Source: an uncultured Candidatus Saccharibacteria bacterium (GTDB lineage Bacteria; Patescibacteriota; Minisyncoccia; Phycocordibacterales; CAIZLB01). Taken from it: a stretch of 64,000 nt of DNA. Position numbers and translations under genes: made by a program. The notes below the pieces were generated by a model. It saw nothing but the letters and a program-made list of their open reading frames with translations, made no database searches and had not been told where the DNA came from. Positions 1,609 through 32,671 of the stretch are shown piece by piece. Position 1 is the first letter of the stretch. Every line of letters starts with the position of its first letter. Where the stretch lies: contig CAYXQC010000004.1 of assembly GCA_964467385.1 (NCBI GenBank), forward strand, positions 9,429 through 73,428, read 5' to 3'.

Positions 1609-1681
1609 GGGCCCGTAGCTTAGTTGGTAGAGCGCCTCATTTGCACTGAGGAGGTCAGCGGTTCGAATCCGCTCGGGTCCA
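1609..1681 (+). tRNA. tRNA-Ala (anticodon UGC)
   Basis: Cloverleaf readable by eye. Acceptor GGGCCCG/CGGGTCC carries the G3:U70 alanine identity pair. Anticodon loop is TTTGCAC with a TGC anticodon. T-arm is GCGGTTCGAATCCGC. CCA is not encoded. Confidence 0.85.
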
Positions 1682-1691
1682 CAAAAACAAA

Positions 1692-1726
1692 GCACCCCAT
1701 CGTAAGATGGTGGTGTTTTGTTTTTG
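1692..1726 (+). terminator. rho-independent terminator after tRNA-Ala
   Basis: Hairpin cacc-ccatc gtaa gatgg-t-ggtg (one-base bulge) followed by TTTTGTTTTT. Confidence 0.5.
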
Positions 1727-1870
1727 CATACTAAGAAGCAAGCCGACTGCTCGGCTTGCGTGCGGATTCGAAAGGGTTCTCCTATATTTTCGAACGAATG
1801 CTTTTGCGACTTTAGCCAAGCATACGTGAGAAAATGGGAAACCCGTACTGCGCCTGTAAGGCGAGAAATT

Positions 1871-1884
1871 CCGCTCGGGTCCAC
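1871..1884 (+). repeat. direct repeat of the tRNA-Ala 3' end (att-like junction)
   Basis: Core ccgctcgggtccac matches the tRNA 3' end exactly. With one flanking base each side (ttccgctcgggtccac) it matches tRNA positions 1665-1680 at 15 of 16. It lies immediately upstream of promoter module A. Confidence 0.6.
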
Positions 1885-1890
1885 TCGATA

Positions 1891-1919
1891 TTGACTACTG
1901 TAAGAACGTATAGTACTAT
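1891..1919 (+). promoter_or_regulatory. promoter module A: TTGACT-N17-TACTAT within an inverted repeat
   Basis: TTGACT 1891-1896, 17-nt spacer, TACTAT 1914-1919, followed by the conserved CCGTGCG and leader ttgagtttggaagaaaggtca. An aagaac/gttctt inverted repeat brackets the -10. Confidence 0.5.
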
Positions 1920-2518
1920 CCGTGCGATGTGTTCTTTTAATTTGGTTGAGTTTGGAAGAAAGGTCATAACTTCCACACTGGTTTTCTGATTGGAAACTGG
2001 GGTTGTGATCCTTCCACTGAACTCAAATGCCAGAACCCTTTAAAAAATCAGGAGAAAAAATCCTTGATGACGCTGCAATTCATTTCACCGTCAATGACGT
2101 AAAATATCGTGTCAGAGCGAGTGCTTTTTTACAGATTTGATTCTTTTACCAGATGGGAAATACATGGTTGTAAATGAGTGGACTAGAGGCAACCCTCTCA
2201 AGCCAACCAAGTGGAAGCTTCTAGATGAAGTACCCAGTGACATGAGTCACCTCGAAGTCTATATTGCTGAGCAGTATGAATGGGAATAGGGTGATTACTA
2301 AGATTTGTCCCCGTTCTGTAAACTGAATGGAGAGCCTAGAGAAAGCAGAGTCTCAACAAGAGCCCCGAGCACAAGCGGAGGGTTCTTTTTAATTTAAAAT
2401 TCTCCTCAAAACCACCAACTCCTTTACAACTTGGTTCAGAAAAATGAAAGAGAAGTCCACTCGCATTGACTTTCTGTATAAATATGGCAATATATAGAAA
2501 GGGAACGAGGTGATTTAA

Positions 2519-2761
2519 ATGAATATCACCGTTACAGAACTGGAAGGCAAATTCGCTTTCTTGTTGTTGAAAAAAGTGATAAAAGAGAAAGATTCGTTGA
2601 GGAAACATAAGCCCAACGAAATCAAGCGCGAAGTAGTTAAGGTCGCGGAGGAACTCGGGGTTAAACCTGAAGACCTCTATTCTCTCTACCGCCGTATCGT
2701 CAACGAGCTAGTCGAGGAAGCTCGTCTTCCAGAAAAAATGGACTTCACCAAGCAAGGCTAG
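2519..2761 (+). CDS. hypothetical small protein (80 aa), island cassette
   Basis: ORF follows a gaagtccactcgcattgac promoter-like module and an RBS ggaacgaggtga. A hairpin terminator (aagccgca...tgcggctt) lies downstream. Confidence 0.45.
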   Translation: MNITVTELEGKFAFLLLKKVIKEKDSLRKHKPNEIKREVVKVAEELGVKPEDLYSLYRRIVNELVEEARLPEKMDFTKQG

Positions 2762-2949
2762 GCACCACGCCTACTAAAAGGGTAATTGCTCCTCCCACAC
2801 CAATGTGGCAAGGGCAGAACAAGAACCTCTCCTCCTTGGAGTCCAGAAGCCGCATCAGTAATGGTGCGGCTTCACTCTTTTAATATTTCACATAAATAAA
2901 CTAAATCTTTTGCAATTTGGTTTATAAAAATAATACTGAAGTCCACAAC

Positions 2950-3888
2950 CTCAATCATGCACCACATCTGCAACCTCGATATATACTTGAGGAATGAGAC
3001 ATTCAATACGAGATATATTAATTGAATTACGAAAGCAAAAAGGAAACTGTGCAAAAACAGCAAGAAGACTCGGAATACATAAAAGCACTGTGAGTAGATG
3101 GAAAAAGCGATCACAAAGAGGTGGTCGCTTTTTAGTTAATCAAATCAAGAGAGAATCAACGAGGCCTACCAATATTAAATATGTTCTCACAGAAAGAGAA
3201 GAGACAGATATCATCAAACTACGAGAAAGGAGGAAGTGTACAGCAGAGAAGATTAAATATATCCTTAAGCTTAAGGTGTCGGTAAGCACCATACAGAGAT
3301 TTTTAATACGAGTTGGTCTCATTGAACAGGAAGGATATCGTCGAAGACCTAAATTTCAAAATACCATACATATGCATGCAAAAAACGTTACTACAGTTGG
3401 ATACCTTCAAATGGATGTGAAAGTAGTTACTCCAGAGCTCTCAGGGCTACCTTGGACTTGTTTTGAGTATGCAGTCATTGATATTTACTCAAGATGGAAA
3501 GACGCTGTGATATTGAATCAGTTAGATCAAGATGGTTCCATCGGTGCACTCCTTGAGATATTACCGCGTCTTCCATTCAAACCTGTATTCATACAAACAG
3601 ACAACGGACTTGAGTTCCAACAGAAGTTTAAGAAGTTCCTAGATGGGTGGAATCTTAAACACCATCATATTCACAAATCTACTCCTAACGAGAATGCAGT
3701 GATTGAGAGATCCTTCCGAACCGATGAAGAAGAATTTTACTTTAGAATTGAACATCGACCTAAACACTACGACGAGCTTCGTGACCTTCTCAAAGACTTC
3801 CTGTACTACTACAACCATGAGAGACCACATTTGGGTATTAACATGAAAACACCAGCTGAAATGGTTGCAGATGTGGTGCATGATTGAG
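2950..3888 (+). mobile_element. IS481-family insertion sequence (939 bp) with perfect 26-bp terminal inverted repeats
   Basis: Left IR ctcaatcatgcaccacatctgcaacc (2950-2975) is the exact reverse complement of 3863-3888. A single transposase ORF sits inside. Confidence 0.75.
2994..3887 (+). CDS. IS481-family transposase (HTH + rve integrase core, DDE)
   Basis: N-terminal HTH (KTARRLGIHKSTVSRWKKR). rve core motifs QTDNGLEF, PNENAVIERSFRT and YNHERPHLGINMKTP. The C-terminus runs into the right IR. Confidence 0.85.
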   Translation: MRHSIRDILIELRKQKGNCAKTARRLGIHKSTVSRWKKRSQRGGRFLVNQIKRESTRPTNIKYVLTEREETDIIKLRERRKCTAEKIKYILKLKVSVSTIQRFLIRVGLIEQEGYRRRPKFQNTIHMHAKNVTTVGYLQMDVKVVTPELSGLPWTCFEYAVIDIYSRWKDAVILNQLDQDGSIGALLEILPRLPFKPVFIQTDNGLEFQQKFKKFLDGWNLKHHHIHKSTPNENAVIERSFRTDEEEFYFRIEHRPKHYDELRDLLKDFLYYYNHERPHLGINMKTPAEMVADVVHD

Positions 3889-3894
3889 ACGATA

Positions 3895-3923
3895 TTGACT
3901 ACTGTAAGAACGTATTGTACTAT
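3895..3923 (+). promoter_or_regulatory. promoter module C: TTGACT-N17-TACTAT within a perfect 8-bp inverted repeat
   Basis: Same 29-nt core as module A except one spacer base. aagaacgt / acgttctt flank the -10 (operator-like). It is upstream of ORF 4039-4551. Confidence 0.5.
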
Positions 3924-4038
3924 CCGTGCGACACGTTCTTTATATAGTTTGGGTTTAGAAATAGAGCCTTAAGAATCGCAGCCGACCTGCGATGCACTTA
4001 AAGTTCTTAACTCAACCCAAACAAAACAGCAACCTACC

Positions 4039-4551
4039 ATGACCGAACTACCTCCACCTCCCAGTGTTATCTACCTCTACCCATACACGATCCCTGTAGA
4101 TACTCTTCAGGCTTCGCGAGAGGGTTGGGTTCAAGTGCTTGCGGACCTTCAGGTTGAACGTGGTGACTCTTTCATTCTTCAGCCTGGCTACAGCATATCG
4201 CTAGCTATCAAGGACCTCGAAGTTGGTATCCTTATCACCGAGGATAACCCAGGCAAGGAATACCACGAGCTCAGCCTATTCCTCTTCGAGTTCGACCTGA
4301 GTTCGCTTGGCGACTTTTTTGTCCCGGCCACGGCGCTTTACACGTATGACGATGGGGCAAACTATGTCACCAGTGTCATTGAACACGTAATCACCGAGCA
4401 CTGGAAACCGCGCGTATTTACTCGTGCTGTTGCCGGCAATGAAACCGTAATCGAGGTTGTCCTTGAAGTTACACATGTTGGTGCAGGTGCGCCAATTGAA
4501 TACGTCGAACGTCTTGATCTGCTGAGCTTCGCAGCTTACGCAGGTGACTAG
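4039..4551 (+). CDS. hypothetical protein (170 aa), island cassette, GC-richer than surroundings
   Basis: ORF downstream of promoter module C and followed by a hairpin plus T-run terminator (~4590-4625). No recognisable family. Confidence 0.5.
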   Translation: MTELPPPPSVIYLYPYTIPVDTLQASREGWVQVLADLQVERGDSFILQPGYSISLAIKDLEVGILITEDNPGKEYHELSLFLFEFDLSSLGDFFVPATALYTYDDGANYVTSVIEHVITEHWKPRVFTRAVAGNETVIEVVLEVTHVGAGAPIEYVERLDLLSFAAYAGD

Positions 4552-4796
4552 TTTCGAGCCAAAAAAACCACCACCTCAAACACAGGGCCACTGTCGCAAG
4601 GTAGTGGTTTTCTGTTTTTTTAATTTCTTACCTTTAAATACGAAAATATACATAGTTCTAATACACACTGGTAGTAAGAACAAAGCTCAATACATCCCTA
4701 CTCAACTTCCTCTTTCTCAGCCTTGAGTATATAAGCCAGCACTTGCAACTCCTTAACCATTTGGTTCCATATTTGAGGCGGGAAGTCCACTCGCAT

Positions 4797-4825
4797 TGAC
4801 GAACAAAAGAATATATTGTACTATC
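4797..4825 (+). promoter_or_regulatory. promoter module D: TTGACG-N17-TACTAT plus conserved leader
   Basis: TTGACG 4797-4802, 17-nt spacer, TACTAT 4820-4825, then CCGTGCAG. The leader ttgagtttggaagaaaggtca..ctggggttgtga..cttccact is shared with module A. Confidence 0.5.
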
Positions 4826-4932
4826 CGTGCAGTATGTTCTTTTAAATTGTTTGAGTTTGGAAGAAAGGTCAGAACTTTTTACCAGTGTTGCTCTGCGAAA
4901 CTGGGGTTGTGACTCTTCCACTAAACTTAATC

Positions 4933-5241
4933 ATGAACAGATTATTGAAGAAGATATTGCGAATGGGCAACCTAGAGCAGTGCACTGAAACGGATATTGA
5001 AGAGGTGATTGCGAGAGGCGCAATAACAACAAAGCAGAAAGAGGTGCTATTTGGAGTGTATAGAACTCACCTTTCGTATGATTCGATTGCGATGAAGGTT
5101 GGCTGCACACCCCTGGGAGCACGTCGAATCGCAAGAAAAACATTTTTAAAGCTGGAGTATGCACTTGCAAGTCGTGCCACAGATCGTTTTATCGACCACC
5201 AAATCATCTGCGGTGTGGCAGCTGCAGCCGCTGGTTGTTGA
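4933..5241 (+). CDS. small HTH protein, sigma-70 region-4-like / LuxR-like helix-turn-helix
   Basis: LSYDSIAMKVGCTPLGARRIARKTFLKLE resembles a sigma region 4.2 HTH. The start was moved from the track's 4885 to the ATG at 4933, because 4885-4930 is the conserved promoter leader shared with module A. Confidence 0.4.
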   Translation: MNRLLKKILRMGNLEQCTETDIEEVIARGAITTKQKEVLFGVYRTHLSYDSIAMKVGCTPLGARRIARKTFLKLEYALASRATDRFIDHQIICGVAAAAAGC

Positions 5242-5485
5242 TAGCTACCCCTTTTTGTTTTTTTATCCAACTCTCCCTACAACAAGGAGTCACACGACTC
5301 ATGATGTGGGGCTTTTTGTTTTATTTAAAAATCTCTTTTAATCATTGCAACTCCCTCATAATCTGGTTCAGAAAAATAAAAGGGAAGTCCGTAGAGTATT
5401 AGCAAATAACACGTAATGTGGTATTTTGTTTTTAGGTTATCGATTCACGATACCGTTCAATACAAAAAAGAAAGGAACCTGCTCA

Positions 5486-5784
5486 TGAGCTTTTCATTGC
5501 TTAGTAAGTTTTACGCCCGTCCGGAGCTTTTCCGGAAAAACCAACCCGTCTATCTTCGTAAGTCTGATGAAGAGGCTGACGAAGATTCCCGTAGAAAACT
5601 TTCTCATCTGCGGGAGCAGATCGGTAGCGGACCGTTTCGTGTGCTTCGGATCACGGACACACCCTCCTCGAAAGCTGCACCTCAATGCGTCACGCTTGCT
5701 GACACAGGAAGTGATGCTCCTCTGCGAACCGAGGATGGACCACTGGAACTCAGCGGCTACTATCTGTCGTCGGATCCGCAGTAA
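5486..5784 (+). CDS. hypothetical protein (~99 aa), island cassette
   Basis: ATG at 5486 is preceded by the RBS aaaggaa, and a terminator-like hairpin lies at ~5805-5850. The longer track start at 5416 lacks an RBS. Confidence 0.35.
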
Positions 5785-6042
5785 GTCCAACTTGGTCGTC
5801 GCCCACTAACTCAGCACAGGAACCCCTGTCGTGAGATAGTGGGTTTTCTATTTTTATGTTACCAACAAATATCTCTGAACACTTTTCCAGATTTCGCATC
5901 TGTAAGGTTGAAATACGCAATTGGGTGATTCAAAAGTCTTGAACCATTACGGGGTATTGACTAGTGTAATATAACGTGATACTAATTGTAACGTTCTTTT
6001 ACATCTGAAAATCAATTCAAACGACAACTCAAAAAAACAGTC

Positions 6043-6489
6043 ATGGAACAAAAACTTGCTGAAGCAATCAGAAAAGCGTTGCTAGAAAACGGAATCGTCT
6101 TTTCGGAGGAGAACCCACTCGAGGTTCGTCTCCGTACTGCCAACGGAAGTATGGATACTCGTATTGCTTTCCCGGCAGTAACGCTAGGGAAAAATCTTGA
6201 AGATCTGATGGCTGTTGAAATTTCAACTCTCGGACTTGGAACGATCACTTGCAATACTTTAAAAGGTATGGGTATGGATACGGTAGGTGATGTACTCAAT
6301 CGAGTTGCAAAAGAAGGTTATCGCGAATTGATGCGTCAACGCCGCTTTGCAAAGAAAGGGTTCTATAATCTCCGTTCCGCGCTTTGGGATCTTGGCCTTA
6401 CCCTCGACAGTAATTGGAAAGTGCTGGATTACCTCCATCAAGATCGCGAATGGGAATCACGATTTCCATACTCTGTACGAGCGAGGTAA
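6043..6489 (+). CDS. stand-alone RNA polymerase alpha-subunit C-terminal-domain-like (HhH) protein
   Basis: VEISTLGLGTITCNTLKGMGMDTVGDVLNRVAKEGYRELMRQRRFAKKGFYNLRSALWDLGL matches the alpha-CTD pattern. Compare this genome's own RpoA C-terminus IDLSQRTANALVNANIRTVGGLIRKREKDILELDGLGSKGVEEIKVALETLGL. Confidence 0.5.
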   Translation: MEQKLAEAIRKALLENGIVFSEENPLEVRLRTANGSMDTRIAFPAVTLGKNLEDLMAVEISTLGLGTITCNTLKGMGMDTVGDVLNRVAKEGYRELMRQRRFAKKGFYNLRSALWDLGLTLDSNWKVLDYLHQDREWESRFPYSVRAR

Positions 6490-6570
6490 AAAGGCTAGCC
6501 AAAGTAGACAGGATTAATGCAGGATCGAAATCGTTGAACATCGTGATCGTTTCATAATGTTCGAACTCAA

Positions 6571-6606
6571 CCCACCACTCTGAAAAGTGTGGTGGGTTTT
6601 AATTTT
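6571..6606 (+). terminator. rho-independent terminator
   Basis: cccaccac tctgaaaagt gtggtggg followed by ttttaatttt. Confidence 0.6.
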
Positions 6607-7007
6607 AATACTTTATGTAAAAAAATAAAAATAAACCCCACACACCCGTAGCTTTTGTGTGGTCTATTCAGATAGTTCAAAAAATGGGAAATAAAAGGAA
6701 CAAAATTACTGTCGATTTTACACAAAAAACACAAAATTGACTCGTAATAAAACTGATTGATCAAACAAAATCAATCTAATGAACAAACGACTAGTCCAAT
6801 TGTGACTAGTCTGTTTTATTTTTAGATATGAATTTTTGATGAATAGGGTATATTCACAGACATATTTTTATGTGCTGTATTGCATTTTAGCTATAAAAAA
6901 GCTCACTTTTTTATTGACGCTCGTATGGGCGAGGAGTAGTCTATGGGTACCTTAACAACCAGACAGGTTCTTTAACGAACCTGCAATATTTACTGCCTAA
7001 ATTTTTT

Positions 7008-10000
7008 ATGCAAAAACCAAACATACAAACATCCCTTTTAGTAGCCTTGCTTTTAAGTTTAAGTATATTTTTACCAAGTGAACTTTCTGCTGCAACAACA
7101 GGTGCAACGAGCGGAACTAGTTTTTCTAACAATGCAGGAGGCACAGTTGCATGGAGCAATCTTTCAAATGCAACAAGTTCAGATAGCAATTATGTAACTG
7201 CTGGTTTAAATAGTGGTGGTAATCAAACTACACAAAAATTTAGAGCAACTGGATTCAATTTTAACATTCCTTCTAATGCTGTTGTAACGGGTATCGAAGT
7301 CACTGCTGAATATTCTGCTTCAAGCGCGAGTAAAATTGCAAGTTCAACTGTACAACTCGTAAAAGGCGGAACTACAATCACTGCCTATACTGGTAGCACA
7401 AGTGCTGTATGGACTACAACTAATACAACCTCTACATATGGAGGAACAAATCAACTTTGGGGTACCACATGGACAGCTACTGATATAAATGCTTCGAACT
7501 TCGGGGTAGAGTTCTCGACTCGATATAATACAGCATTTACTGGGGCGGTAACGGCTCAGCTTGATCAACTTTCTATAAAGGTCTACTATACGGCTCTTCC
7601 TCTTATCTCTGTTACTTCAAACATCTCAACCTCAACTCTGACGAATCAAGATATTACTATTACAGCCACTTCAACTGCTAATAGTACCCTAAACGCCACT
7701 TCACATATCTTCACAGAAAACGGCTCATTCGACTTCGTGGCGACTAATGTTGATGGTACAGCTACTACTACAGTAACTATTACAAACATCGACAAAGAGG
7801 CACCAGTTATCGCATCTTCTGTAGATATTGAAAATATTGAGGCAACTTCAGTATCAGGAGCTACTGTAACTTATACAACTCCAGCTATTACTGATAACAA
7901 CTCTGGAGCTACGGTTTCATGTCTCCCAGCTTCTGGATCTACTTTTGCACTTGGAACTACAGGTGTGATCTGTAATGGTTCAGATGTTGCAGGCAACTCT
8001 GCTACTTCAACTACATTCAATGTAACTGTGGTTGATACAACTTCACCTGTCATTGTATTGATTGGTGCTGATCCTCTTTCTGTAGAAGCTGGTACAGTCT
8101 TCGTTGACCCAGGGGCCACAGCAATAGATGCAAGTGGTGACTTTGCTGCCACATCAACAAATAACGTCGATACAGGAACTCTAGGGATATATACAGTGAC
8201 ATACACTGCCACTGATGCATCAGGAAACAGTGCTTCATCTACTACTCGAACAGTAAATGTGGTAGACACAACAGCACCTGCTGCACCAACTGCTGTATCA
8301 CCAATTGCAAATGCAATTCTTACTTCATCAGCACTCACTGTGCTTGATTGGAGTGATGTGGCTGATTTCTCATCACCAGTAACATATGCATACCAGCTCT
8401 CAAATTCAAATGCTACTAACCTAGACGGAACATTCGTTACTCCGATCGCTTCAGGAAGCACACTTACTACATCTGAAGCCTCAACGACTCTTGCGACAGA
8501 GGGTGACTATTACTACATTGCTCAGGCAACAGATGCACAGCTCAATGCTGGCCTTTGGATGTCTCCGGTTAAATTTACAATCGACAATACCGCACCTGCA
8601 ATTACAGTCACTGGCTCAAGCAGTATGACAGTAGAAGGTGGCTCAGTGTACGCAGACGATGGAGCTACAGCTCTTGATACGGTTGATGGACCAGTTTCAG
8701 TTTCATCATCAGGCAGTGTTGATACATCAATCACAGGCACATACACAATTACCTATACTGCAACAGATACAGCTGGAAATACTGCTACATCTACTCGATC
8801 TATTGAAGTAGTGGATACAACATCTCCTGTCATCACTCTTCTTGGCTCTGATCCCGTAACCATCGAAGCGGGTTCAACATATACAGATGCTGGAGCTACA
8901 GTGTCTGACAATATCTCTACTCCAATCACTGCAACAGCTTCAGGAACAGTTTCAACATTCGTAGTTGGAACATATGTGATCGAATACAATGCAGTTGATG
9001 GATCTGGAAATGTGGCCGCAACGGTTACTCGAACAGTAAACGTAGTAGACACAACGGCACCAGTTATAAACATCACTGGTCAGAATCCAAATATTGTAAC
9101 TATTAACAATGTATATGTAGACTCTGGTGCAACAGCTAGCGATCTTGTTGACGGAATCATCACTGTAACTTCAACAAGCACAGTTGATACAGCAACTCTT
9201 GGTACATATGCGGTGACATATTTTGCAACTGACTTGAGTGGTAATACAACTTCAGCTTCTCGATCAGTTATCGTTATTCCTCCAGACACAACAGCACCAG
9301 TTATCACAATCCTCGGCACAAATCCTCTTACAATCGAAGGTGGATCACTCTATATCGATGCCGGAGCAACAGCTCTTGATAACGTGAATGGAAATCTCAC
9401 AAGTTCAATCGTGACAGTCAATGGTGTAATAGCTACTTCAACAGGTTCATACACTGTGACTTACGATGTGTCTGACGGGGCAGGAAATCCTGCGACACAA
9501 GGCGTTCGAAATGTAACTGTAGTAGATACAACTGCACCAGTTCTCACAGTAAATGGTACAAATCCACTCACACTTCACATCGGTGATACATACACAGAGC
9601 TCGGTGCAACAGCTACAGATGCAGTTGATCAAGCGGTAGTGGTAGTAGTTGGTGGTGACATTGTTACAACAACAGCAACTTCAACATTCGTGGTGAGCTA
9701 TACAGCATCAGATGCATCAGGAAATCCTGCAATCCCAGTATCACGAACAGTGTATGTGGTTGATATAGCAGTACCAATCATCACAATCGTAGGTTCAAGC
9801 ACCGTTGATGTTGAATACGGCTCAGTGTATACAGATGCCGGAGCAACAGCGCTTGATGACGCTGATGGTGATATCTCTGCAAACATTGTAACTTCAGGAA
9901 GTGTAAACACATCAGCTCTCGGTGCATACACACTTTCATATGATGTATCAGACTCATCAGGAAATGCTGCAATTACCACAAACCGAACAGTAAATGTGGT

Positions 10001-10847
10001 GGATACGACAGCTCCAGTGGTGACAGTAACAGGTAGCTCAACAGTTGTACTCACGGTTGGTGACACGTACACAGAAGATGGAGCAACAGCTACAGATGCA
10101 GTTGATGGTTCACTTATAGTAACGACAACAGGAACAGTAGATACAAATACAGTTGGTACATACACACTTGTTTACTCTGCTACAGATCTTAGTGGCAACA
10201 CCGGCACATCAAGCCGAGACGTGATTGTAAATGCTGCTCCAGATACAACGGCGCCAATCATTACAATCCTTGGTACAAATCCTGTAACAATCACAGTCGG
10301 TGGTGTATTCACTGATGAAGGGGCAACTTCAACTGATAATGTTGATGTAAATCTTCCAATCACAGCTTCAAGCACGGTAAACACAAGCGTAGTCGGTACA
10401 TACACAGTGACATACAACACAACTGACAATTCAGGTAATGCTGCTATTCCAATGGTTCGAACAGTAAACGTGGTAGCGGCTACTGAAACAACTACACAGA
10501 CTCAGCAAGGTCAGACAGGTGGAGGAGGCGCACCAGTGGCACTCTTCACTAATTCAGGAGCAAATGGAGGTTCAAATAATGGTGCAGGTAACAATGGGGC
10601 AGCTGGAGTAGTACTCGGTGAAGCAACATTCCAATTCACAAAAAATCTTGGTCTTGGTTCAAGAGGAAATGATGTGATTGAACTCCAGAAGCGACTTAAG
10701 GCAGAAGGATTCTTTAAGTTCAATGTAACAACAGGATTCTTCGGTCCAGTGACACTTCAGGCGGTCAAGGCATACCAGATCGCTCACGGTATTAAGCCAG
10801 TATCAGGATTCGTAGGTGTACTTACTCGAGCGGAACTCAATAAGTAA
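7008..10847 (+). CDS. large secreted surface protein: signal peptide, ~10 tandem Ig-like (DUF5011/HYR-type) repeats, C-terminal peptidoglycan-binding domain
   Basis: Signal peptide MQKPNIQTSLLVALLLSLSIFLPSELSA. An ~80-aa unit ending ...R(T/S)VNVVDTTAP(V)I(T) recurs about 10 times, each with YTD.GATA.D..DG and G.Y...Y.A.D.SGN motifs. C-terminus carries a PG_binding_1-like segment (LGLGSRGNDVIELQKRLKAEGFF...GPVTLQAVKAYQ). Confidence 0.8.
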   Translation: MQKPNIQTSLLVALLLSLSIFLPSELSAATTGATSGTSFSNNAGGTVAWSNLSNATSSDSNYVTAGLNSGGNQTTQKFRATGFNFNIPSNAVVTGIEVTAEYSASSASKIASSTVQLVKGGTTITAYTGSTSAVWTTTNTTSTYGGTNQLWGTTWTATDINASNFGVEFSTRYNTAFTGAVTAQLDQLSIKVYYTALPLISVTSNISTSTLTNQDITITATSTANSTLNATSHIFTENGSFDFVATNVDGTATTTVTITNIDKEAPVIASSVDIENIEATSVSGATVTYTTPAITDNNSGATVSCLPASGSTFALGTTGVICNGSDVAGNSATSTTFNVTVVDTTSPVIVLIGADPLSVEAGTVFVDPGATAIDASGDFAATSTNNVDTGTLGIYTVTYTATDASGNSASSTTRTVNVVDTTAPAAPTAVSPIANAILTSSALTVLDWSDVADFSSPVTYAYQLSNSNATNLDGTFVTPIASGSTLTTSEASTTLATEGDYYYIAQATDAQLNAGLWMSPVKFTIDNTAPAITVTGSSSMTVEGGSVYADDGATALDTVDGPVSVSSSGSVDTSITGTYTITYTATDTAGNTATSTRSIEVVDTTSPVITLLGSDPVTIEAGSTYTDAGATVSDNISTPITATASGTVSTFVVGTYVIEYNAVDGSGNVAATVTRTVNVVDTTAPVINITGQNPNIVTINNVYVDSGATASDLVDGIITVTSTSTVDTATLGTYAVTYFATDLSGNTTSASRSVIVIPPDTTAPVITILGTNPLTIEGGSLYIDAGATALDNVNGNLTSSIVTVNGVIATSTGSYTVTYDVSDGAGNPATQGVRNVTVVDTTAPVLTVNGTNPLTLHIGDTYTELGATATDAVDQAVVVVVGGDIVTTTATSTFVVSYTASDASGNPAIPVSRTVYVVDIAVPIITIVGSSTVDVEYGSVYTDAGATALDDADGDISANIVTSGSVNTSALGAYTLSYDVSDSSGNAAITTNRTVNVVDTTAPVVTVTGSSTVVLTVGDTYTEDGATATDAVDGSLIVTTTGTVDTNTVGTYTLVYSATDLSGNTGTSSRDVIVNAAPDTTAPIITILGTNPVTITVGGVFTDEGATSTDNVDVNLPITASSTVNTSVVGTYTVTYNTTDNSGNAAIPMVRTVNVVAATETTTQTQQGQTGGGGAPVALFTNSGANGGSNNGAGNNGAAGVVLGEATFQFTKNLGLGSRGNDVIELQKRLKAEGFFKFNVTTGFFGPVTLQAVKAYQIAHGIKPVSGFVGVLTRAELNK
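8016..10500 (+). repeat. tandem ~240-bp coding repeats (~10 copies) inside the surface-protein gene
   Basis: Periodic recurrence of gtggtagacacaacagcacc-like units. The many antisense ORFs here (7871-8461, 8753-9076, 9698-10165 and others) are repeat artefacts. Confidence 0.7.
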
Positions 10848-11009
10848 AGTAAGTAGGTAAAATTTTAGATAGGTGAGTTGGTGCGGTGAACAATGCTGGA
10901 AAATTTTACAAAGGATCACTCAAATCTGGGTGGTCTTTTGTATTTGTAAAAAGTGTTGTATTATAATAGGCGTTAAGTATAGGCATGTATATACCTTTAT
11001 CTATTATCT

Positions 11010-12086
11010 ATGTGGCATAAGATTAAACACTATCTAGTTCAAACTGAGGAAAATAAACACAATCCGCACCTTCTACGATCGGAAATCTTGGCTGTGTTTT
11101 TGGTTCTAATTGTTGGACTGCAAGTTGTTTTTTTCTCTGGAATTTTGACACGAACTATTGCCTCATTTGCAAATATGATGGCAAGTGTTTTACCTGGGGT
11201 TCTCAGTCTTGAAACGAATGAATATCGTCACGGTCGAAGTATCTCTGAACTGCGCATGAGTCCTATTCTTGCCGAAGCTGCAAAATTGAAAGCAGAGGAT
11301 ATGGCACGCCGTGGATATTTCTCACATACTGGTCCAGATGGTGAAAAGCCTTGGGTCTGGCTACAAAAAGTTGGGTATGTGTATACATATGCGGGTGAAA
11401 ATCTAGCAGTAAACTTCGTCGATTCAAGCGATGTTACAAAGGCTTGGATAAATTCTCCAAAACATAAAGCTAATCTTGAGAATTCTAATTTTAAAGAAAT
11501 TGGTATCGGGACGGCTGAAGGGGAATATGAAGGAAAAATGACTACATATGTTGTGCAATTTTTTGCTACACCTGCAGAAGCTGAGAGCGTACCTGCTACG
11601 CCAGTTGCTACTACCATAACTGTAGCCGCGACTTCTACATCTATGGCCAATTCTGGCAAGCGAATCACAACTGCTTCATCGACAATTGCAACGTCAACAG
11701 TTTTGGCAACTACAGCGAGCACCTCAACAGGAAGCTCTACATCAGAAGTACTTGGTGTCTACACAACAGATACACCTATTGATACTTCCAGTGCTCGTAA
11801 TGGCGAAAATTCAGCAAATATGGCCTATGTAGAGGCTGTATCTCATCCGCGAGACTTTGCTCGAAATCTATTTATCGCAATAAGTACATTTCTTCTCCTG
11901 GTTCTTGGTTTTTCTATCATCCATCGAGCTATTTCACTAGGTGAAGCGCCATTTTTGCAGAGAATTACTGTGGGATTTAGGGCACATCGTAAGCATATTC
12001 TCGAAGTGATTTGTGTAATTCTTGCAATAGGCCTTATTTGGACTATTTTTGGCTATATTTCAGCGGGAATGGTTGCTGTTTCATAA
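11010..12086 (+). CDS. CAP/SCP/PR1-like (YkwD-family) domain protein with N- and C-terminal transmembrane segments and a Thr/Ser-rich linker
   Basis: CAP core: RMSPILAEAAKLKAEDMARRGYFSHTGPDG...AGENLAVNF...AWINSPKHKANLENSNFKEIGIG. Hydrophobic segments lie near residues 25-45 and 300-350. Confidence 0.7.
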   Translation: MWHKIKHYLVQTEENKHNPHLLRSEILAVFLVLIVGLQVVFFSGILTRTIASFANMMASVLPGVLSLETNEYRHGRSISELRMSPILAEAAKLKAEDMARRGYFSHTGPDGEKPWVWLQKVGYVYTYAGENLAVNFVDSSDVTKAWINSPKHKANLENSNFKEIGIGTAEGEYEGKMTTYVVQFFATPAEAESVPATPVATTITVAATSTSMANSGKRITTASSTIATSTVLATTASTSTGSSTSEVLGVYTTDTPIDTSSARNGENSANMAYVEAVSHPRDFARNLFIAISTFLLLVLGFSIIHRAISLGEAPFLQRITVGFRAHRKHILEVICVILAIGLIWTIFGYISAGMVAVS

Positions 12087-12596
12087 ATCATCTTCTTCCT
12101 TGCATGAGAACAGAGAATATCTGCTGATATTTTCCTCTATTCGCTGCAGCTCATTAGTCTCAAGCAAATCATCAGATAATTTATTCAATAAGATAGCCAA
12201 AATCAAAGCTGATTTTAAACAAAATATTGACAAAAATTTGTTTCATCTCGCTGTGTATTTTTTAAGTGTTTTTTTGGTAAGAAAATATACCTACGCGCGG
12301 CAGAATATGTGACATCAATCCGTTGCCTTAACATTGATTTTCACACGGGAGCATCCAAGCATTAGCGACCGATGAGTGCTTAATTGCGTTCTGACCCACT
12401 AAGCGAATGCACCCACTTTATATCTTCGTATAGGTAGCCATTGATTCGCAAACACAATCCGCTTTGACGGGTTGTTTTGTTTTTTTGACAATAGTCACAT
12501 TGTGTCGTAATATTTTCGAGTTCTACAAAGGACATTGAAAAATAAAAGCCAAAAAACCAGCAACAACGACTTTTAACCCATAAGGAAGGAATTCAA

Positions 12597-13013
12597 ATGC
12601 TTAAAAATGCAGAAAGTGAAAGAGGAAAAACTGAGGAAAAGCCCAAAAAGCGGATCCTGATCGTGGAGGACAATGAACGGATTGGTGAAACGATGGAGTG
12701 GTTTTGCGGAATCCAGCTGGGCTTCGTAGTGGCGTGGGTAAAGACTCGGAGAAATGCCTCTCGTCACATCAACATGAAAGGTCCTTGGGATTGCGTCATT
12801 CTCGACGGATGTCTTGAGGGTTTGGAACCTGATACGTTGTATTTGATCCCTGTGATCAAGGCAACATCCCCAAACTGCGTGATCATTGCCAACTCGAACG
12901 ACCTGCATGTTTCTGACCGGCTGATGGCTGAAGGTTGTCACCTCCGTTTTCCGAGCAAGGATGATTTCAATCAATTCTTCCGCAAGTTCTGCGAGGAGAA
13001 AGGTTGGACCTGA
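12597..13013 (+). CDS. stand-alone receiver (REC/CheY-like) domain protein, possibly degenerate
   Basis: KRILIVEDNERIGE ... CVILDGCLEGLEP ... fold pattern. Strong RBS aaggaagg. Promoter TTGACA-N17-TAATAT lies upstream (~12498-12527). Confidence 0.5.
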   Translation: MLKNAESERGKTEEKPKKRILIVEDNERIGETMEWFCGIQLGFVVAWVKTRRNASRHINMKGPWDCVILDGCLEGLEPDTLYLIPVIKATSPNCVIIANSNDLHVSDRLMAEGCHLRFPSKDDFNQFFRKFCEEKGWT

Positions 13014-13048
13014 TCTCTGGTCATCAATAACGCGGATTCGAACCGCAG

Positions 13049-13080
13049 CGCGCATCTTCATCGGTGCGCGTTTTTTTATT
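13049..13080 (+). terminator. rho-independent terminator after the REC gene
   Basis: gcgcgca tcttcatcgg tgcgcg followed by TTTTTTTATTTT. Confidence 0.45.
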
Positions 13081-13189
13081 TTAAAATAGATTTTCATATT
13101 GGATTTGACGGATTTCAGATGGTGCGTATCCTGTACTTGATACGAAAGCACATCTGCCTAGTATCAAAACAAGCCATTTTGAGAAGATC

Positions 13190-13384
13190 ATGGAAGAAGG
13201 AAACAGAGGGTTTTTCACCAAGAACAATGTTAAGTACGGTGAAATCGGTAAAGTCTACGAGGATTTCACCAAAAACTGTCCACGACAGATTCCGATTGAA
13301 TCAGAGACCATCAAGGATCCCAACGGTGACACTTTTATGGTCAAGATTCTCTGGGAAACTGCTGATTTCAGTAAGAACTCATGA
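13190..13384 (+). CDS. hypothetical small protein (64 aa)
   Basis: ORF bracketed by the upstream terminator and a downstream terminator. No family recognised. The alternative overlapping 143-aa frame (13119-13550) is less compact. Confidence 0.25.
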   Translation: MEEGNRGFFTKNNVKYGEIGKVYEDFTKNCPRQIPIESETIKDPNGDTFMVKILWETADFSKNS

Positions 13385-13407
13385 GGTTATCATTGGGATC
13401 AATCCAC

Positions 13408-13443
13408 AGCGCCGACCTCTACAAAGGTACGGCGCTTTTTTAT
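13408..13443 (+). terminator. rho-independent terminator
   Basis: agcgccg acctctacaaaggtac ggcgct followed by TTTTTTA. Confidence 0.5.
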
Positions 13444-13819
13444 TTGCAATTTCGTTTATTATTCGAAATTATTTCATAATAGTGCACAAACGACCAAAAT
13501 TTCATCAAAAATCTCTAAAAAATAAATCAAAAAATAATAAAATAGTCTAAAGAAAAATCTATAAATGAGCCGACACAAATTGTCGTAAAACTTATCCTAA
13601 AATACGACACAAAATATCAGGTTTTTAGAGTTGCATTTGCATCAATTTTAAAATCGTTTTGCAGTAGCAATTTTCATCAATTTTTTGTAATTATCCACAA
13701 GTCACACATTCGAAAAAGGTGTAAAATTTTACCCACGAGGCAATTTGGCCAATTTTAGTTGAGCGAGATAGTGTGTTGCTTCATTATAAAAACTTATCAA
13801 ACCTTAGACCTTTCGTCGT

Positions 13820-19002: not shown

Positions 19003-19560
19003 ATGCAGAGTAAGAAACACATTGAAGAGCTAAAAAAGGACTTTCGGGAGACCTACGACTTGTACGCTGATGCACTGTTCCGTTTTTCGTACTATAAGCT
19101 TTCCGACAGGGAAAAAGCCAAGGATATTGTGCAGGACACATTCGTCCGGTTCTGGGAGTATATAGCTTCAGATGGGGAGGTTGAGAACGTAAAAGCGTTT
19201 CTCTACCGTATTGCTCACAATGCGATTATTGATAATTATCGCAAGAAAAAAGAGATCTCCCTTGATGTCCTTGAAGAAGAAGGTTTTGACCCACGCGATC
19301 ATGACATGCATCACTCTGTCTCAAGAGGTCCGGATGCTCGTAAAGCTCTCGAACTCATCAATCAACTCGATGACTCAGAGTCTGAGGTTATGCTCATGCG
19401 TTATGTAGATAGCTTATCCGTAAAAGAGATAGCTATGATCCTCGACGAACGTGAAAACACTGTTTCGGTCAAAATCCATCGAGCCTTAAAGCATCTACAG
19501 GAACTTTTTGAAGAGGTTTCCTTTAACTCTGCTACGAAGGTACCTTCGCAAGAACAATGA
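19003..19560 (+). CDS. ECF-type RNA polymerase sigma factor (sigma-70 regions 2 and 4)
   Basis: Region 2 DIVQDTFVRFWEY and a region-4 HTH (LSVKEIAMILDERENTVSVKIHRALKHL). Confidence 0.8.
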   Translation: MQSKKHIEELKKDFRETYDLYADALFRFSYYKLSDREKAKDIVQDTFVRFWEYIASDGEVENVKAFLYRIAHNAIIDNYRKKKEISLDVLEEEGFDPRDHDMHHSVSRGPDARKALELINQLDDSESEVMLMRYVDSLSVKEIAMILDERENTVSVKIHRALKHLQELFEEVSFNSATKVPSQEQ

Positions 19561-31615: not shown

Positions 31616-32671
31616 ATGGCAACTGCACCAACACTATCATTCAAGCCGAAGATCGTTACTAAGAGACTCCTTTCTGCGCTCCCTGAAAGAGCTCGACTGG
31701 TTGTTACAAAGCGATATGGTCTCGACAAGGACAATGAAAAGATGACACTTGAAGCTATCGGCGAAACATATAACATCACCCGAGAACGAGTTCGACAGAT
31801 TGAGCACGCTGCTCTACAAAACATTCGAAAGTCAGCTTTCTATAAGCAAGAAAAACCTATTTTCGAGGAACTCTATACATATATTCATGATCTTGGTGGC
31901 ATGATCGGTGAAGAAGAGCTTCTTAAGCATTTTGCAAAAGATCAGTCTACACAGAATCATATTCATTTTATGCTCGTGGTAGGTGAAAACTTCAAGAAAG
32001 AAAAAGAAGACCCTGAATTCAAACACCGATGGCATGTTGACGCACAACTTTCAAAGAAGATTCATGAAGCGCTCCGAAAGCTCTACAAAACTCTTGGTGA
32101 TGATGATTTGATTCCAGAGTCAGAGATGATTAAAACATTCCTTGAGCATTTGAAAGATGTAAATGAAAAGTACAAGAACGACGAAGTTGCAAAGCGATGG
32201 TTAAATATTTCTAAAAACATCGCCAAAAACCCTCTAGGTGAATGGGGTAAGTCAGATTCTCAGAATGTTAAAACAAAAGGTATTCGAGATTATGCCTTTC
32301 TTGCAATGCGAAAGCATGGTTCACCGATCCATTTCCGAGATATTGCAAAGCTTATCGAAAAACTCTTTAACAAGAAGGCTCATGTTGCTACTACTCATAA
32401 CGAACTTATCAAGGATAAGCGATTCGTACTCGTAGGACGAGGGCTCTATGCTCTTACAGAATGGGGTTATGCAAGTGGTGTCGTGAAAGACGTTATCAAG
32501 AAAATGATCGAAAAGTACGGTCCTCTTACCAAAGAAGAAATAATTCAAAAGGTTATGAAGGAACGATATGTAAAAGAAAACACAATCCTCGTTAACCTCC
32601 AAAACTCAAAATTCTTCAAGAAAGATAAGGATGGAAAATACTCTCTCGGTGGCGATCTTGCAGAAAAATAA
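31616..32671 (+). CDS. sigma-70 region-4 domain protein with a ~270-aa C-terminal domain of unknown function
   Basis: N-terminus LVVTKRYGLDKDNEKMTLEAIGETYNITRERVRQIEHAALQNIRK is a canonical region 4.2 HTH. No region 2 is present. Confidence 0.6.
   Translation: MATAPTLSFKPKIVTKRLLSALPERARLVVTKRYGLDKDNEKMTLEAIGETYNITRERVRQIEHAALQNIRKSAFYKQEKPIFEELYTYIHDLGGMIGEEELLKHFAKDQSTQNHIHFMLVVGENFKKEKEDPEFKHRWHVDAQLSKKIHEALRKLYKTLGDDDLIPESEMIKTFLEHLKDVNEKYKNDEVAKRWLNISKNIAKNPLGEWGKSDSQNVKTKGIRDYAFLAMRKHGSPIHFRDIAKLIEKLFNKKAHVATTHNELIKDKRFVLVGRGLYALTEWGYASGVVKDVIKKMIEKYGPLTKEEIIQKVMKERYVKENTILVNLQNSKFFKKDKDGKYSLGGDLAEK

Follow-up and report, generated by a model that had tools for sequence, protein, structure and literature searches.

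Related systems

PeSL (promoter-early stem-loop) regulatory cassettes have been described in T4-type phages (Arbiol et al. 2010, PMC2839356; Comeau et al. 2014, PMC4122927). In these, a strong sigma-70-type promoter is fused to a stem-loop that often overlaps the -10 box and contains G-T pairs. The modules sit just upstream of small ORFans in a hyperplastic region, carry an AT-rich upstream region and a Shine-Dalgarno sequence at the 3' end, and terminate upstream transcription; the repeats mediate gene shuffling, and mini-circles are observed. Integron gene cassettes form co-oriented arrays of single-gene, mostly orphan, promoterless units that lack their own recombinase, have precise boundaries, and are expressed from a common Pc promoter. 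An IntI tyrosine recombinase encoded next to the array acts on attI and on attC sites, which carry R''/L''...L'/R' boxes (RYYYAAC...GTTRRRY), are conserved in structure but variable in sequence, and undergo crossover in R'. tRNA-targeting integrative elements and their tandem arrays, for example the tycheposons of Prochlorococcus (bioRxiv 10.1101/2020.12.28.424599), insert at a tRNA 3' end and leave a partial tRNA copy behind, successive integrations pushing older units further into an island whose content varies between strains. CIME-type elements are integrase-less. Operators of the lambda or LexA style overlap a promoter, and an inverted repeat can bracket the -10 box; a repressor operator has sequence-conserved dyad half-sites at a helical-phase spacing, bound by a cognate dimer.

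The locus studied here lies in a 64-kb stretch of a Paceibacterota (candidate-phyla-radiation, CPR) chromosome, referred to below as the window. It was compared with each of these systems in turn.

With PeSL cassettes it shares a sigma-70-like promoter with an overlapping stem-loop, upstream of ORFans in a plastic region. It differs in its chromosomal, housekeeping context, in the absence of an AT-rich UP region (the sequence upstream of -35 is GAAGTCCACTCGC), in the lack of a Shine-Dalgarno sequence before the ORFs at 2027, 4039 and 4933, in an additional leader hairpin of ~80 nt and a repeat of ~68 nt, and in junctions at a fixed 6-bp core shared with a tRNA 3' end. With integron cassettes it shares a co-oriented array of single-gene, mostly orphan units without their own recombinase, precise boundaries, a cassette-associated element conserved in structure but variable in sequence, and evidence for a circular or tandem form. 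However, every cassette has its own predicted promoter and terminator, the anchoring site is the 3' end of tRNA-Ala, no attC R/L boxes were recognised by inspection, and no IntI gene was found among the ORFs scanned in the window. As in tRNA-targeting elements, the 3' end of the tRNA is repeated directly (exact 15-nt repeat at 1668-1682 and 1870-1884), but the units are only 0.55-0.9 kb, with a single ORF each and neither integrase nor replication module, and the shared core is only 6-7 bp, or 15-19 bp for the tRNA copy. With operator-overlapping promoters it shares the inverted repeat around the -10 box, but the half-site spacing is 29 bp, the inner arms co-vary, and the wobble bias points to intramolecular pairing on the sense strand.

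Features of the island

The following features were annotated, all on the forward strand. D2 denotes the ~68-nt cassette-end repeat; A, B, D and F denote promoter modules; L numbers denote related metagenomic loci. Promoters and terminators are predicted from sequence.

1609..1682 (+), tRNA-Ala(TGC), identified with ARAGORN and Rfam (72 bits); its 3' end ...GGGTCCAC is the inferred primary attachment point, and in L145 a cassette sits directly after it.
1682..1726 (+), terminator hairpin natively following the tRNA (inverted repeat; RNA fold -23.3 kcal/mol); equivalent terminators follow the tRNA in L006, L015, L147, L148 and L151.
1727..1869 (+), conserved spacer segment between the tRNA and its 3'-end copy; a homologous segment occurs in L145, and analogous segments in L006, L015, L147 and L019 share GA(T/C)GAGAAAGC.
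1870..1884 (+), exact 15-nt copy of the tRNA-Ala 3' end (TCCGCTCGGGTCCAC), the inferred secondary attachment point, where the array starts; the same arrangement is seen in L006, L015 and L145.
1891..1919 (+), module A promoter: TTGACT, 17 nt, TACTAT.
1902..1936 (+), module A hairpin 1, with the -10 box at its apex and followed by TTTTAATTT.
1946..2026 (+), module A leader hairpin 2, abutting the ATG at 2027, without a Shine-Dalgarno sequence.
2027..2289 (+), cassette A cargo ORF in two frames, joined by a -1 shift at T_TTT_TTA (2125-2131).
2393..2460 (+), D2 repeat ending in the core GAAGTCCAC.
2466..2493 (+), second promoter type, without hairpin 1 (TTGACT, 16 nt, TGG-CAATAT), followed by a Shine-Dalgarno sequence and the 80-aa ORF at 2519-2761; a near-identical promoter follows GGGTCCAC in L006.
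2846..2873 (+), terminator of the 80-aa cassette.
2879..2946 (+), D2 repeat ending in GAAGTCCAC, upstream of module B.
2950..3888 (+), insertion sequence (IS) with 26-bp perfect inverted repeats and an HTH + rve_3 DDE transposase at 2994-3887; it is an intruder and not part of the system, and an identical module B without it occurs in L151.
3895..3923 (+), module B promoter.
3906..3940 (+), module B hairpin 1.
3947..4022 (+), module B leader hairpin 2, different in sequence from A and D but of the same architecture; conserved together with the 170-aa ORF in L145, L147, L148 and L151.
4039..4551 (+), 170-aa orphan cargo ORF without Pfam or PHROG match; six homologues at 58-78% identity, all in similar arrays.
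4584..4611 (+), terminator of the 170-aa cassette.
4651..4790 (+), long form of the D2 repeat, ending in GGGAAGTCCAC; shared by L006, L145 and L147 behind unrelated ORFs.
4796..4824 (+), module D promoter: TTGACG, 17 nt, TACTAT.
4805..4843 (+), module D hairpin 1, 17 pairs followed by TTTTAAATT.
4851..4930 (+), module D leader hairpin 2; the ATG is at 4933.
4933..5241 (+), 102-aa orphan cargo with a predicted sigma region-4-like HTH fold (weak evidence).
5325..5392 (+), D2 repeat with a degenerate core (GAAGTCCGT), followed by a TTAGCA-N17-TATTTT promoter and the 99-aa ORF (5485-5784).
5957..5997 (+), degenerate module F: TTGACT, a weak -10, a short hairpin and GTTCTTT, upstream of the alpha-CTD-like 148-aa ORF (6043-6489).

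Promoter modules and hairpins

The preliminary description had reported three near-identical promoters, each embedded in an inverted repeat, together with a leader shared by modules A and D, and this observation was confirmed. The three TTGAC-N17-GTACTATCCGTGC modules lie at 1891, 3895 and 4796. The pattern TTGACK-N17-TACTATCCGTGC matched exactly at 1891-1925, 3895-3929 and 4796-4830 and nowhere else in the window; shuffled sequences gave 0.07 matches on average, and 0 of 100 shuffles reached three. The third module had been placed one position too far downstream (4797-4825 instead of 4796-4824). The inverted repeat proved to be longer than described, with 15-17 pairs and a 5-nt loop TATCC. 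The leader of A and D showed 83% identity over 83 nt and 88% over 34 nt, and folds into one long hairpin (z=-3.4 for A and -4.4 for D), of which the ggaag/cttcc pairing noted before forms part of the basal stem. Three features had been missed: module B has an equivalent leader hairpin of different sequence (z=-5.8), each module is preceded by a ~68-nt repeat ending in GAAGTCCAC, and module A directly follows the copy of the tRNA-Ala 3' end.

The modules are very likely genuine sigma-70-type promoters, although this is inferred from sequence alone and promoters of CPR bacteria have not been characterised. Promoters of this type have TTGACA-like -35 and TATAAT-like -10 hexamers spaced 16-18 nt apart, a geometry that all three modules show. 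In 20 related modules from 10 loci, TTGAC was invariant and was followed at 17 +/- 1 nt by a TAnnnT/A hexamer, even where the surrounding sequence and the spacers differed. The same genome uses sigma-70-like signals elsewhere, for example TGTATAAT before ddl.

Covariation of the hairpins was examined across nine copies. Of the cells, 93% paired, in comparison with about 43% when the partner columns were slid, and eight pairs carried changes on both sides, a number reached by 0 of 500 shuffles; column pair 71-93, for example, reads AU in four copies, GC in three and GU in one. The leader is a genuinely conserved structure with compensatory changes. G:T wobbles outnumbered A:C mismatches about 10:1 (21:2 in hairpin 1 and 22:3 in hairpin 2), which points to pairing on the sense strand in both hairpins. 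The + strand folded better than the - strand in all three copies of hairpin 1 (z=-4.8 against -1.7 in module D). As RNA, hairpin 1 has -11 to -19 kcal/mol, in comparison with -13 to -27 kcal/mol for the ORF terminators of the island, and is followed by UUCUUUU(A)A, with the same TTTT(A)A tail as those terminators; its stem is, however, AU/GU-rich, whereas intrinsic terminators usually have a stable, G+C-rich stem-loop followed directly by a U-run, and only module D was flagged by the terminator scanner. Searches against Rfam at gathering threshold and at E<=5, on the island and on related loci, returned only the tRNA and no hit on the modules; weak tmRNA_permuted hits (16-17 bits, E 2-4) are caused by the tRNA T-arm.

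Related loci and cassette junctions

Ten related metagenomic loci carry different cassettes joined exactly at GTCCAC, the sequence in which the tRNA-Ala 3' end also terminates. A syntenic ddl-tRNA-Ala island in L006 has different cargo. The same D2 type is joined to different promoter types at GTCCAC (window A2 in comparison with L007, and window D in comparison with L006c). L145 carries a 728-nt cassette exactly between tRNA...GGGTCCAC and the native downstream terminator, flanked by GTCCAC, whereas the window has the empty site. In L019 the last D2...GTCCAC abuts sequence like that which natively follows the tRNA. One cassette, designated P0002, has three different upstream and two different downstream neighbours. 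The 601-nt contig L021 has a 55-nt terminal overlap, giving a 546-bp head-to-tail, circle-like junction; this path comes from one low-coverage metagenome contig and could equally be a tandem duplication. Of the 13 metagenome hits to the promoter pattern, nine are unrelated generic promoters. A search of genome contigs with Ddl returned a single relative at 58% identity, in which no modules were found.

A Pfam scan of 54 main ORFs of the window, which left out the 1279-aa ORF at 7008-10847 and shorter or overlapping ORFs, returned no recombinase other than the unrelated IS transposase, the only rve-type protein. No recombinase was found in the related arrays either. The cargo ORFs have no Pfam or PHROG family, and the 102-aa and most other cargo proteins have no informative homologues; the 102-aa protein retrieved only itself from 5.8 billion proteins. 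Its AF2 model (pLDDT 74-88 for residues 20-80) gave a sigma region-4/KorA-like fold, with SigD region 4 and KorA as top Foldseek hits, but only with weak E-values on a single-sequence model. The 148-aa protein was shown to be alpha-CTD-like through its homologues.

A viral origin found no support. Three specific patterns gave no match in IMG/VR, a 15-mer gave only chance hits, with 0 of 120 loci carrying the module context, and BLAST against phage records and comparison with PHROGs gave nothing useful.

Interpretation

The three modules are best read, with a probability of about 0.6, as the 5' ends of three single-gene cassettes in a co-oriented array anchored at tRNA-Ala. Each cassette has the order TC(G/A)(C/A)(T)ATTGAC (-35), 17 nt, a -10 box, hairpin 1, hairpin 2, an orphan ORF, an intrinsic terminator, and a D2 repeat ending in (A/G)GTCCAC. 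In this view, TTGAC/TACTAT is a strong housekeeping-sigma promoter, and transcription should start about 6-8 nt after the -10 box, inside the 3' arm of hairpin 1. Hairpin 1 would therefore form only in RNA arriving from upstream, where it would act, with its U-run, as a terminator or attenuator and insulate each cassette, as in the PeSL modules. Hairpin 2 would be a structured 5' UTR ending at a start codon that lacks a Shine-Dalgarno sequence, and probably governs mRNA stability, processing or translation start. Cassettes would be gained, lost and reshuffled by recombination at the 6-bp core GTCCAC, most likely by a recombinase encoded elsewhere in the genome, and the conserved module, together with D2, may also serve as the arms of the recombination site. 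The sequence architecture, its conservation, the sense-strand pairing with covariation and the junction polymorphism between genomes were established directly by the analysis, whereas transcription and its start sites, termination, the role of hairpin 2, recombination and the enzyme responsible are inferences.

Some observations fit this reading less well. The stems of hairpin 1 are AU-rich, and each ORF already has a stronger terminator upstream, so that a second terminator may be redundant. Hairpin 1 is degraded in about 5 of the 20 modules, yet GTTCTTT persists, and the outer arms AAGAAC/GTTCTT are nearly invariant in sequence; a plain RNA stem requires neither, which hints at protein recognition by a regulator or recombinase. 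Some mosaic breakpoints lie at the hairpin 2/ATG boundary and at the terminator/D2 boundary rather than at GTCCAC, which fits homologous recombination between conserved linkers.

A more far-reaching reading, possible but tentative, is that Paceibacterota have an integron-like gene-capture system that relies on a recombinase supplied in trans. The 3' end of tRNA-Ala (...GGGTCCAC) and its nearby copy would serve as attachment sites, the cassettes would be autonomous expression units, and the repeated (T)G(G/T)TTC motifs in D2 and in both arms of hairpin 1 would be recombinase-binding sites. CPR bacteria have tiny genomes and few recognised mobile elements, and little is known about how they acquire accessory genes. 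The locus suggests a compact gene-capture route, apparently undescribed so far, in which single orphan genes travel with their own promoter, insulating hairpin, structured leader and terminator and plug in at a tRNA end at a fixed 6-bp core. If confirmed, it would be a cassette system outside the integron paradigm, with the tRNA acting as the attI-like site, promoter-bearing cassettes and an unknown recombinase; the PeSL-type composite promoter/terminator logic would extend from T4-type phages to a bacterial chromosome; and ready-made candidate promoters, terminators and 5' UTRs would become available for an uncultivated phylum. The presence of stand-alone predicted sigma region-4-like and alpha-CTD-like proteins among the cargo hints at accessory control of transcription.

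Alternative explanations

The interpretation offered in the preliminary description, namely a repressor operator overlapping each promoter and co-regulating the island genes, possibly through the sigma-4-like or the alpha-CTD-like protein, was only partly supported: the promoters, the structured leader and the alpha-CTD-like assignment held, and the sigma region-4-like assignment rests on the weak fold evidence given above. The classic operator arrangement itself is not supported and appears unlikely. The half-sites AAGAAC/GTTCTT are 29 bp apart centre to centre (about 2.8 helical turns), the arms between them co-vary instead of being conserved, and the excess of sense-strand G:T pairs points to pairing within one strand rather than to a palindrome read by a protein; moreover, GTTCTTT persists where the left arm is lost. 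The proposed regulators are variable cargo, absent from relatives that keep the modules but carry other ORFs, so the modules cannot generally depend on them. An operator function is not excluded, because the outer six base pairs are nearly invariant, and the cargo does include folds of DNA-binding type. It is likewise rather unlikely, though less so, that the conserved linkers are PeSL-like regulatory cassettes only, shuffled purely by homologous recombination, with GTCCAC as mere microhomology and no dedicated recombinase. The PeSL precedent with mini-circles, the breakpoints at the ATG and at the terminator/D2 border, and the absence of a recombinase gene among the ORFs scanned speak for this view. 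On the other hand, three kinds of junction join sequences that share nothing but GTCCAC: the tRNA 3' end or its copy joined to a promoter (window 1884/1885; L006; L145), and D2 joined to the sequence natively downstream of the tRNA (L019, L145). An identity of 6-7 bp is too short for RecA-type exchange and is typical of a recombinase overlap region.

That hairpins 1 and 2 are folded single-stranded DNA recombination sites resembling attC, rather than RNA elements, is very doubtful. Strand-specific pairing fits single-stranded DNA as well as RNA, hairpin 2 is conserved in structure while its sequence varies, the array is co-oriented, and a circle-like junction exists. However, the junction core lies 15-20 nt upstream of hairpin 1, upstream of both hairpins and not inside a hairpin base; by inspection, hairpin 1 shares only AAC...GTT with the attC arrangement and hairpin 2 has the opposite order; no IntI gene was found among the ORFs scanned; and hairpin 2 travels with its ORF as a 5' UTR.

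Further readings were rejected by inspection: dif/Xer sites (the spacer between the inner arms is 16 nt, not 6), a hammerhead (GAUGAG is present, but no CUGA), and retrons and DGRs (no reverse transcriptase was found among the ORFs scanned). A promoter inside D2 that would transcribe hairpin 1 was sought, but no convincing -35/-10 pair was found. Coding on the antisense strand of D2 was discarded, because the conserved "peptide" only reflects DNA conservation and the substitutions are non-synonymous. D2 as a decayed tRNA 3' half remains unproven: GGTTC and GTCCAC are shared, but their spacing differs (17-19 nt in comparison with 12).

Predicted promoter modules and their inverted repeats

The 64-kb window was scanned for the pattern TTGACK-N17-TACTATCCGTGC, which occurs exactly three times, at 1891 (module A), 3895 (module B) and 4796 (module D), whereas shuffled sequences gave 0.07 occurrences on average. 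The observation made in the preliminary description, of three near-identical promoter modules embedded in inverted repeats and accompanied by a structured leader, was thus confirmed, although its coordinate for the third module was off by one. Each copy holds an inverted repeat of 15-17 bp with the loop TATCC (hairpin 1). Modules A and D share a leader (hairpin 2) that folds into one imperfect hairpin of ~80 nt ending at the start codon, and module B has a hairpin of the same size and position with a different sequence. Folding z-scores ranged from -3.4 to -5.8 for the leaders alone, and from -3.5 to -7.4 for the whole modules.

The window is ordinary chromosome of a candidate-phyla-radiation (CPR) bacterium and encodes ddl, ribonucleotide reductase, aminoacyl-tRNA synthetases, ribosomal proteins, rpoA and dnaK/dnaJ. 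The only relative of its Ddl in the genome collection is a Candidatus Paceibacterota MAG at 58% identity. The modules lie in an island of ~5 kb immediately downstream of tRNA-Ala(TGC). The island is a co-oriented series of small ORFs, each of which is followed by a good terminator and then by a repeat of ~68 nt (D2) ending in GAAGTCCAC; TTGAC comes about 5 nt after this core. The features are as follows:

1609-1682, tRNA-Ala(TGC)
1870-1884, exact 15-nt copy of the tRNA 3' end, TCCGCTCGGGTCCAC, which module A follows in place of a D2
1902-1936, inverted repeat of module A
1946-2026, leader hairpin of module A
2027-2289, ORF of cassette A, split into two frames
2393-2460, D2
2879-2946, D2
2950-3888, insertion sequence separating module B from its D2
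3906-3940, inverted repeat of module B
3947-4022, leader hairpin of module B
4723-4790, D2
4805-4843, inverted repeat of module D
4851-4930, leader hairpin of module D
5325-5392, degenerate D2

The insertion sequence carries perfect inverted repeats of 26 bp and encodes a 297-aa HTH + rve_3 DDE transposase. It sits 3 nt from the GTCCAC core of module B and 6 nt from the -35 box, and only "AC" is shared by its two flanks. The two frames of the cassette A ORF are joined by a -1 shift on the heptamer T_TTT_TTA (2125-2131), which connects MPEPF...SAFL to TDLILLPDGK...EWE; programmed frameshifting, a 1-nt deletion or a sequencing error could each account for this.

Related arrays in metagenomes

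A metagenome scan with the promoter pattern returned 13 loci. Four modules in three of these (loci L006, L007 and L011) are true relatives that share the whole unit of D2, core, promoter, hairpin 1 and hairpin 2; the others are unrelated generic promoters. Homologues of two cargo proteins led to further arrays (L017-L024, L145-L148 and L151).

Locus L006 is syntenic with the window (ddl, tRNA-Ala, island) but carries different ORFs. The same D2 type is joined to different promoter types exactly at GTCCAC, as shown by comparison of window A2 with L007 and of window D with L006c. In L145, a 728-nt cassette consisting of promoter, hairpin 1, a 172-aa ORF, terminator and D2, and ending in ...GAAGTCCAC, is inserted precisely after tRNA...GGGTCCAC; it is followed by the terminator and spacer segment that directly follow the tRNA in the window, which gives a clean comparison of occupied and empty sites. 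In L019 the last D2...GTCCAC abuts sequence like that natively downstream of the tRNA. The cassette designated P0002 has three different upstream and two different downstream neighbours. L021, a 601-nt SPAdes contig, has a terminal overlap of 55 nt, indicating a 546-bp circle or a head-to-tail tandem of that cassette. L151 carries a module B identical to that of the window, without the insertion sequence. In L007 (168-336), a 42-aa InsA-like zinc-ribbon ORF and a strong local hairpin, which gave spurious miRNA-family hits, lie upstream of a Sigma70_r4 cassette and may represent an IS1-like fragment in the array.

The whole interval between tRNA-Ala and the ribonucleotide reductase gene varies in size and content between relatives, being about 12 kb in the window (1683-13800), 9 kb in L145 and 4 kb in L148. 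In the window it includes a 1279-aa repeat-rich surface protein (7008-10847) and a CAP-domain protein (11010-12086). Independent Logan assemblies all break inside tRNA-Ala (end of L001, start of L016, starts of L145-L148), and in the window's own sample they also break at about 6982, which fits strain heterogeneity, or a repeat, at the island borders within the sampled populations.

In several relatives, the tRNA-Ala is followed by a terminator, a conserved segment of ~130-190 nt (GA(T/C)GAGAAAGC...GGGTCG...) and then a second copy of a tRNA 3' end (window 1683-1884; L006; L015, 8291-8457; L145, 759-930; L147, 30-194). In L006 that copy matches the L015-type tRNA rather than the tRNA of L006 itself, and in L015 it is followed by a terminator. 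The segment may be a small RNA or an old attachment-site remnant; Rfam gave only insignificant tmRNA_permuted hits.

Promoter signals and hairpin pairing

In 20 modules from 10 loci, TTGAC is invariant and a TAnnnT/A hexamer lies 17 +/- 1 nt downstream in each case, even where the spacer and the hairpin differ; the variants include TACTAT, TATTAT, TATAAA, TACCAT, TAATCT, TAACAT and others. This pattern of conservation is what a sigma-70-type promoter predicts; promoter function is inferred from sequence alone.

On an alignment of nine copies, the two-hairpin structure pairs in 93% of cells, against about 43% when the 3' partners are slid, and eight pairs show changes on both sides, a number that 0 of 500 shuffles reached. 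Non-Watson-Crick cells are overwhelmingly G:T on the + strand (21 against 2 A:C in hairpin 1, and 22 against 3 in hairpin 2), and the + strand folds better than the - strand in all three window copies. The pairing is therefore within the sense strand, as RNA or as top-strand single-stranded DNA, and is not the symmetry of a protein-read duplex. The conserved outer half-sites are 29 bp apart. As RNA, hairpin 1 is about as stable as the true terminators of the island and has the same TTTT(A)A tail. The predicted start site, expected near 1926, 3930 and 4831 in modules A, B and D, lies inside its 3' arm, so that the hairpin could form only in transcripts arriving from upstream. The expected 3' ends of such upstream read-through lie at the U-runs near 1937-1940, 3941 and 4844-4847.

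Hairpin 2 travels with its ORF: the 170-aa family keeps the B-type hairpin in L145, L148, L151 and, with compensatory remodelling, L147. The A/D-type hairpin, however, precedes unrelated ORFs. The basal 5' strand GTTGAGTTTGGAAGAA is conserved in all types, while the apex varies with compensation (for example, UUUUC/GAGAA changes to UUUCC/GGGAA). The AUG follows within 0-19 nt and there is no Shine-Dalgarno sequence. A role in mRNA stability, processing or translation start is inferred, possibly by RNase III trimming to a short leader. No Rfam family matched. Several island ORFs and the 1279-aa ORF likewise lack a Shine-Dalgarno sequence, and ddl has an extended -10 box (TGTATAAT, 305-312) only 8 nt before its ATG (321), which suggests a leaderless mRNA.

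Candidate regulators

The 148-aa protein encoded in the island is alpha-CTD-like, as its homologues hit PF03118 at E = 3.6e-6 or better. The 102-aa protein is an orphan; its single-sequence AF2 model has pLDDT 74-88 over residues 20-80 and best matches sigma region 4 and KorA, with a Foldseek E-value of only 0.09 and a target-normalised TM-score of 0.77. A cassette in L007 encodes a clear stand-alone Sigma70_r4 protein (E = 4e-14). These proteins, of which the first two had been put forward in the preliminary description as candidate regulators, are variable cargo, so the conserved modules cannot depend on them in general, although they might still modulate the modules. Elsewhere in the window, the chromosome encodes a 351-aa protein with an N-terminal Sigma70_r4 domain plus HARE-HTH (31616-32671), and an ECF-type sigma factor next to a DUF5667 protein (19003-19560).

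Interpretation

The modules are best explained as composite promoter/insulator elements with a structured 5' UTR that head autonomous single-gene cassettes in a strain-variable array anchored at tRNA-Ala. The architecture of the modules, their conservation, the sense-strand pairing and the differing junctions between loci were read from the sequences, whereas transcription, termination and recombination, as well as the role of hairpin 2, are inferences. The arrangement of promoter and hairpin 1 is that described and tested for PeSLs in T4-type phages, in which a strong sigma-70 promoter is combined with a stem-loop that often overlaps the -10 box and contains G-T pairs; those modules lie upstream of ORFans, terminate upstream transcription, mediate shuffling and yield mini-circles (PMC2839356). 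PeSL-like regulatory cassettes, integron-like arrays and tRNA-targeted integration are already known, and the array is regarded as a variation on these; it differs from the PeSLs of T4-type phages in lying in ordinary chromosome of a CPR bacterium.

The reading of the inverted repeat as a repressor operator overlapping the promoter, as proposed in the preliminary description, is only partly supported. Additional protein recognition, by a regulator or a recombinase, is nevertheless suggested by the nearly invariant sequence of the outer arms and by the survival of GTTCTTT where the left arm has decayed. With regard to mobility, the junctions that share only GTCCAC (tRNA end joined to promoter, tRNA copy joined to promoter, and D2 joined to native downstream sequence) argue for site-specific recombination with an overlap of 6-7 bp. 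No recombinase was found among the main ORFs of the window covered by the Pfam scan, other than the transposase of the insertion sequence, or in the arrays, so that it would have to act in trans. Other breakpoints, at the ATG and at the border between terminator and D2, fit homologous exchange between the conserved linkers, as proposed for PeSLs, and both processes may operate.
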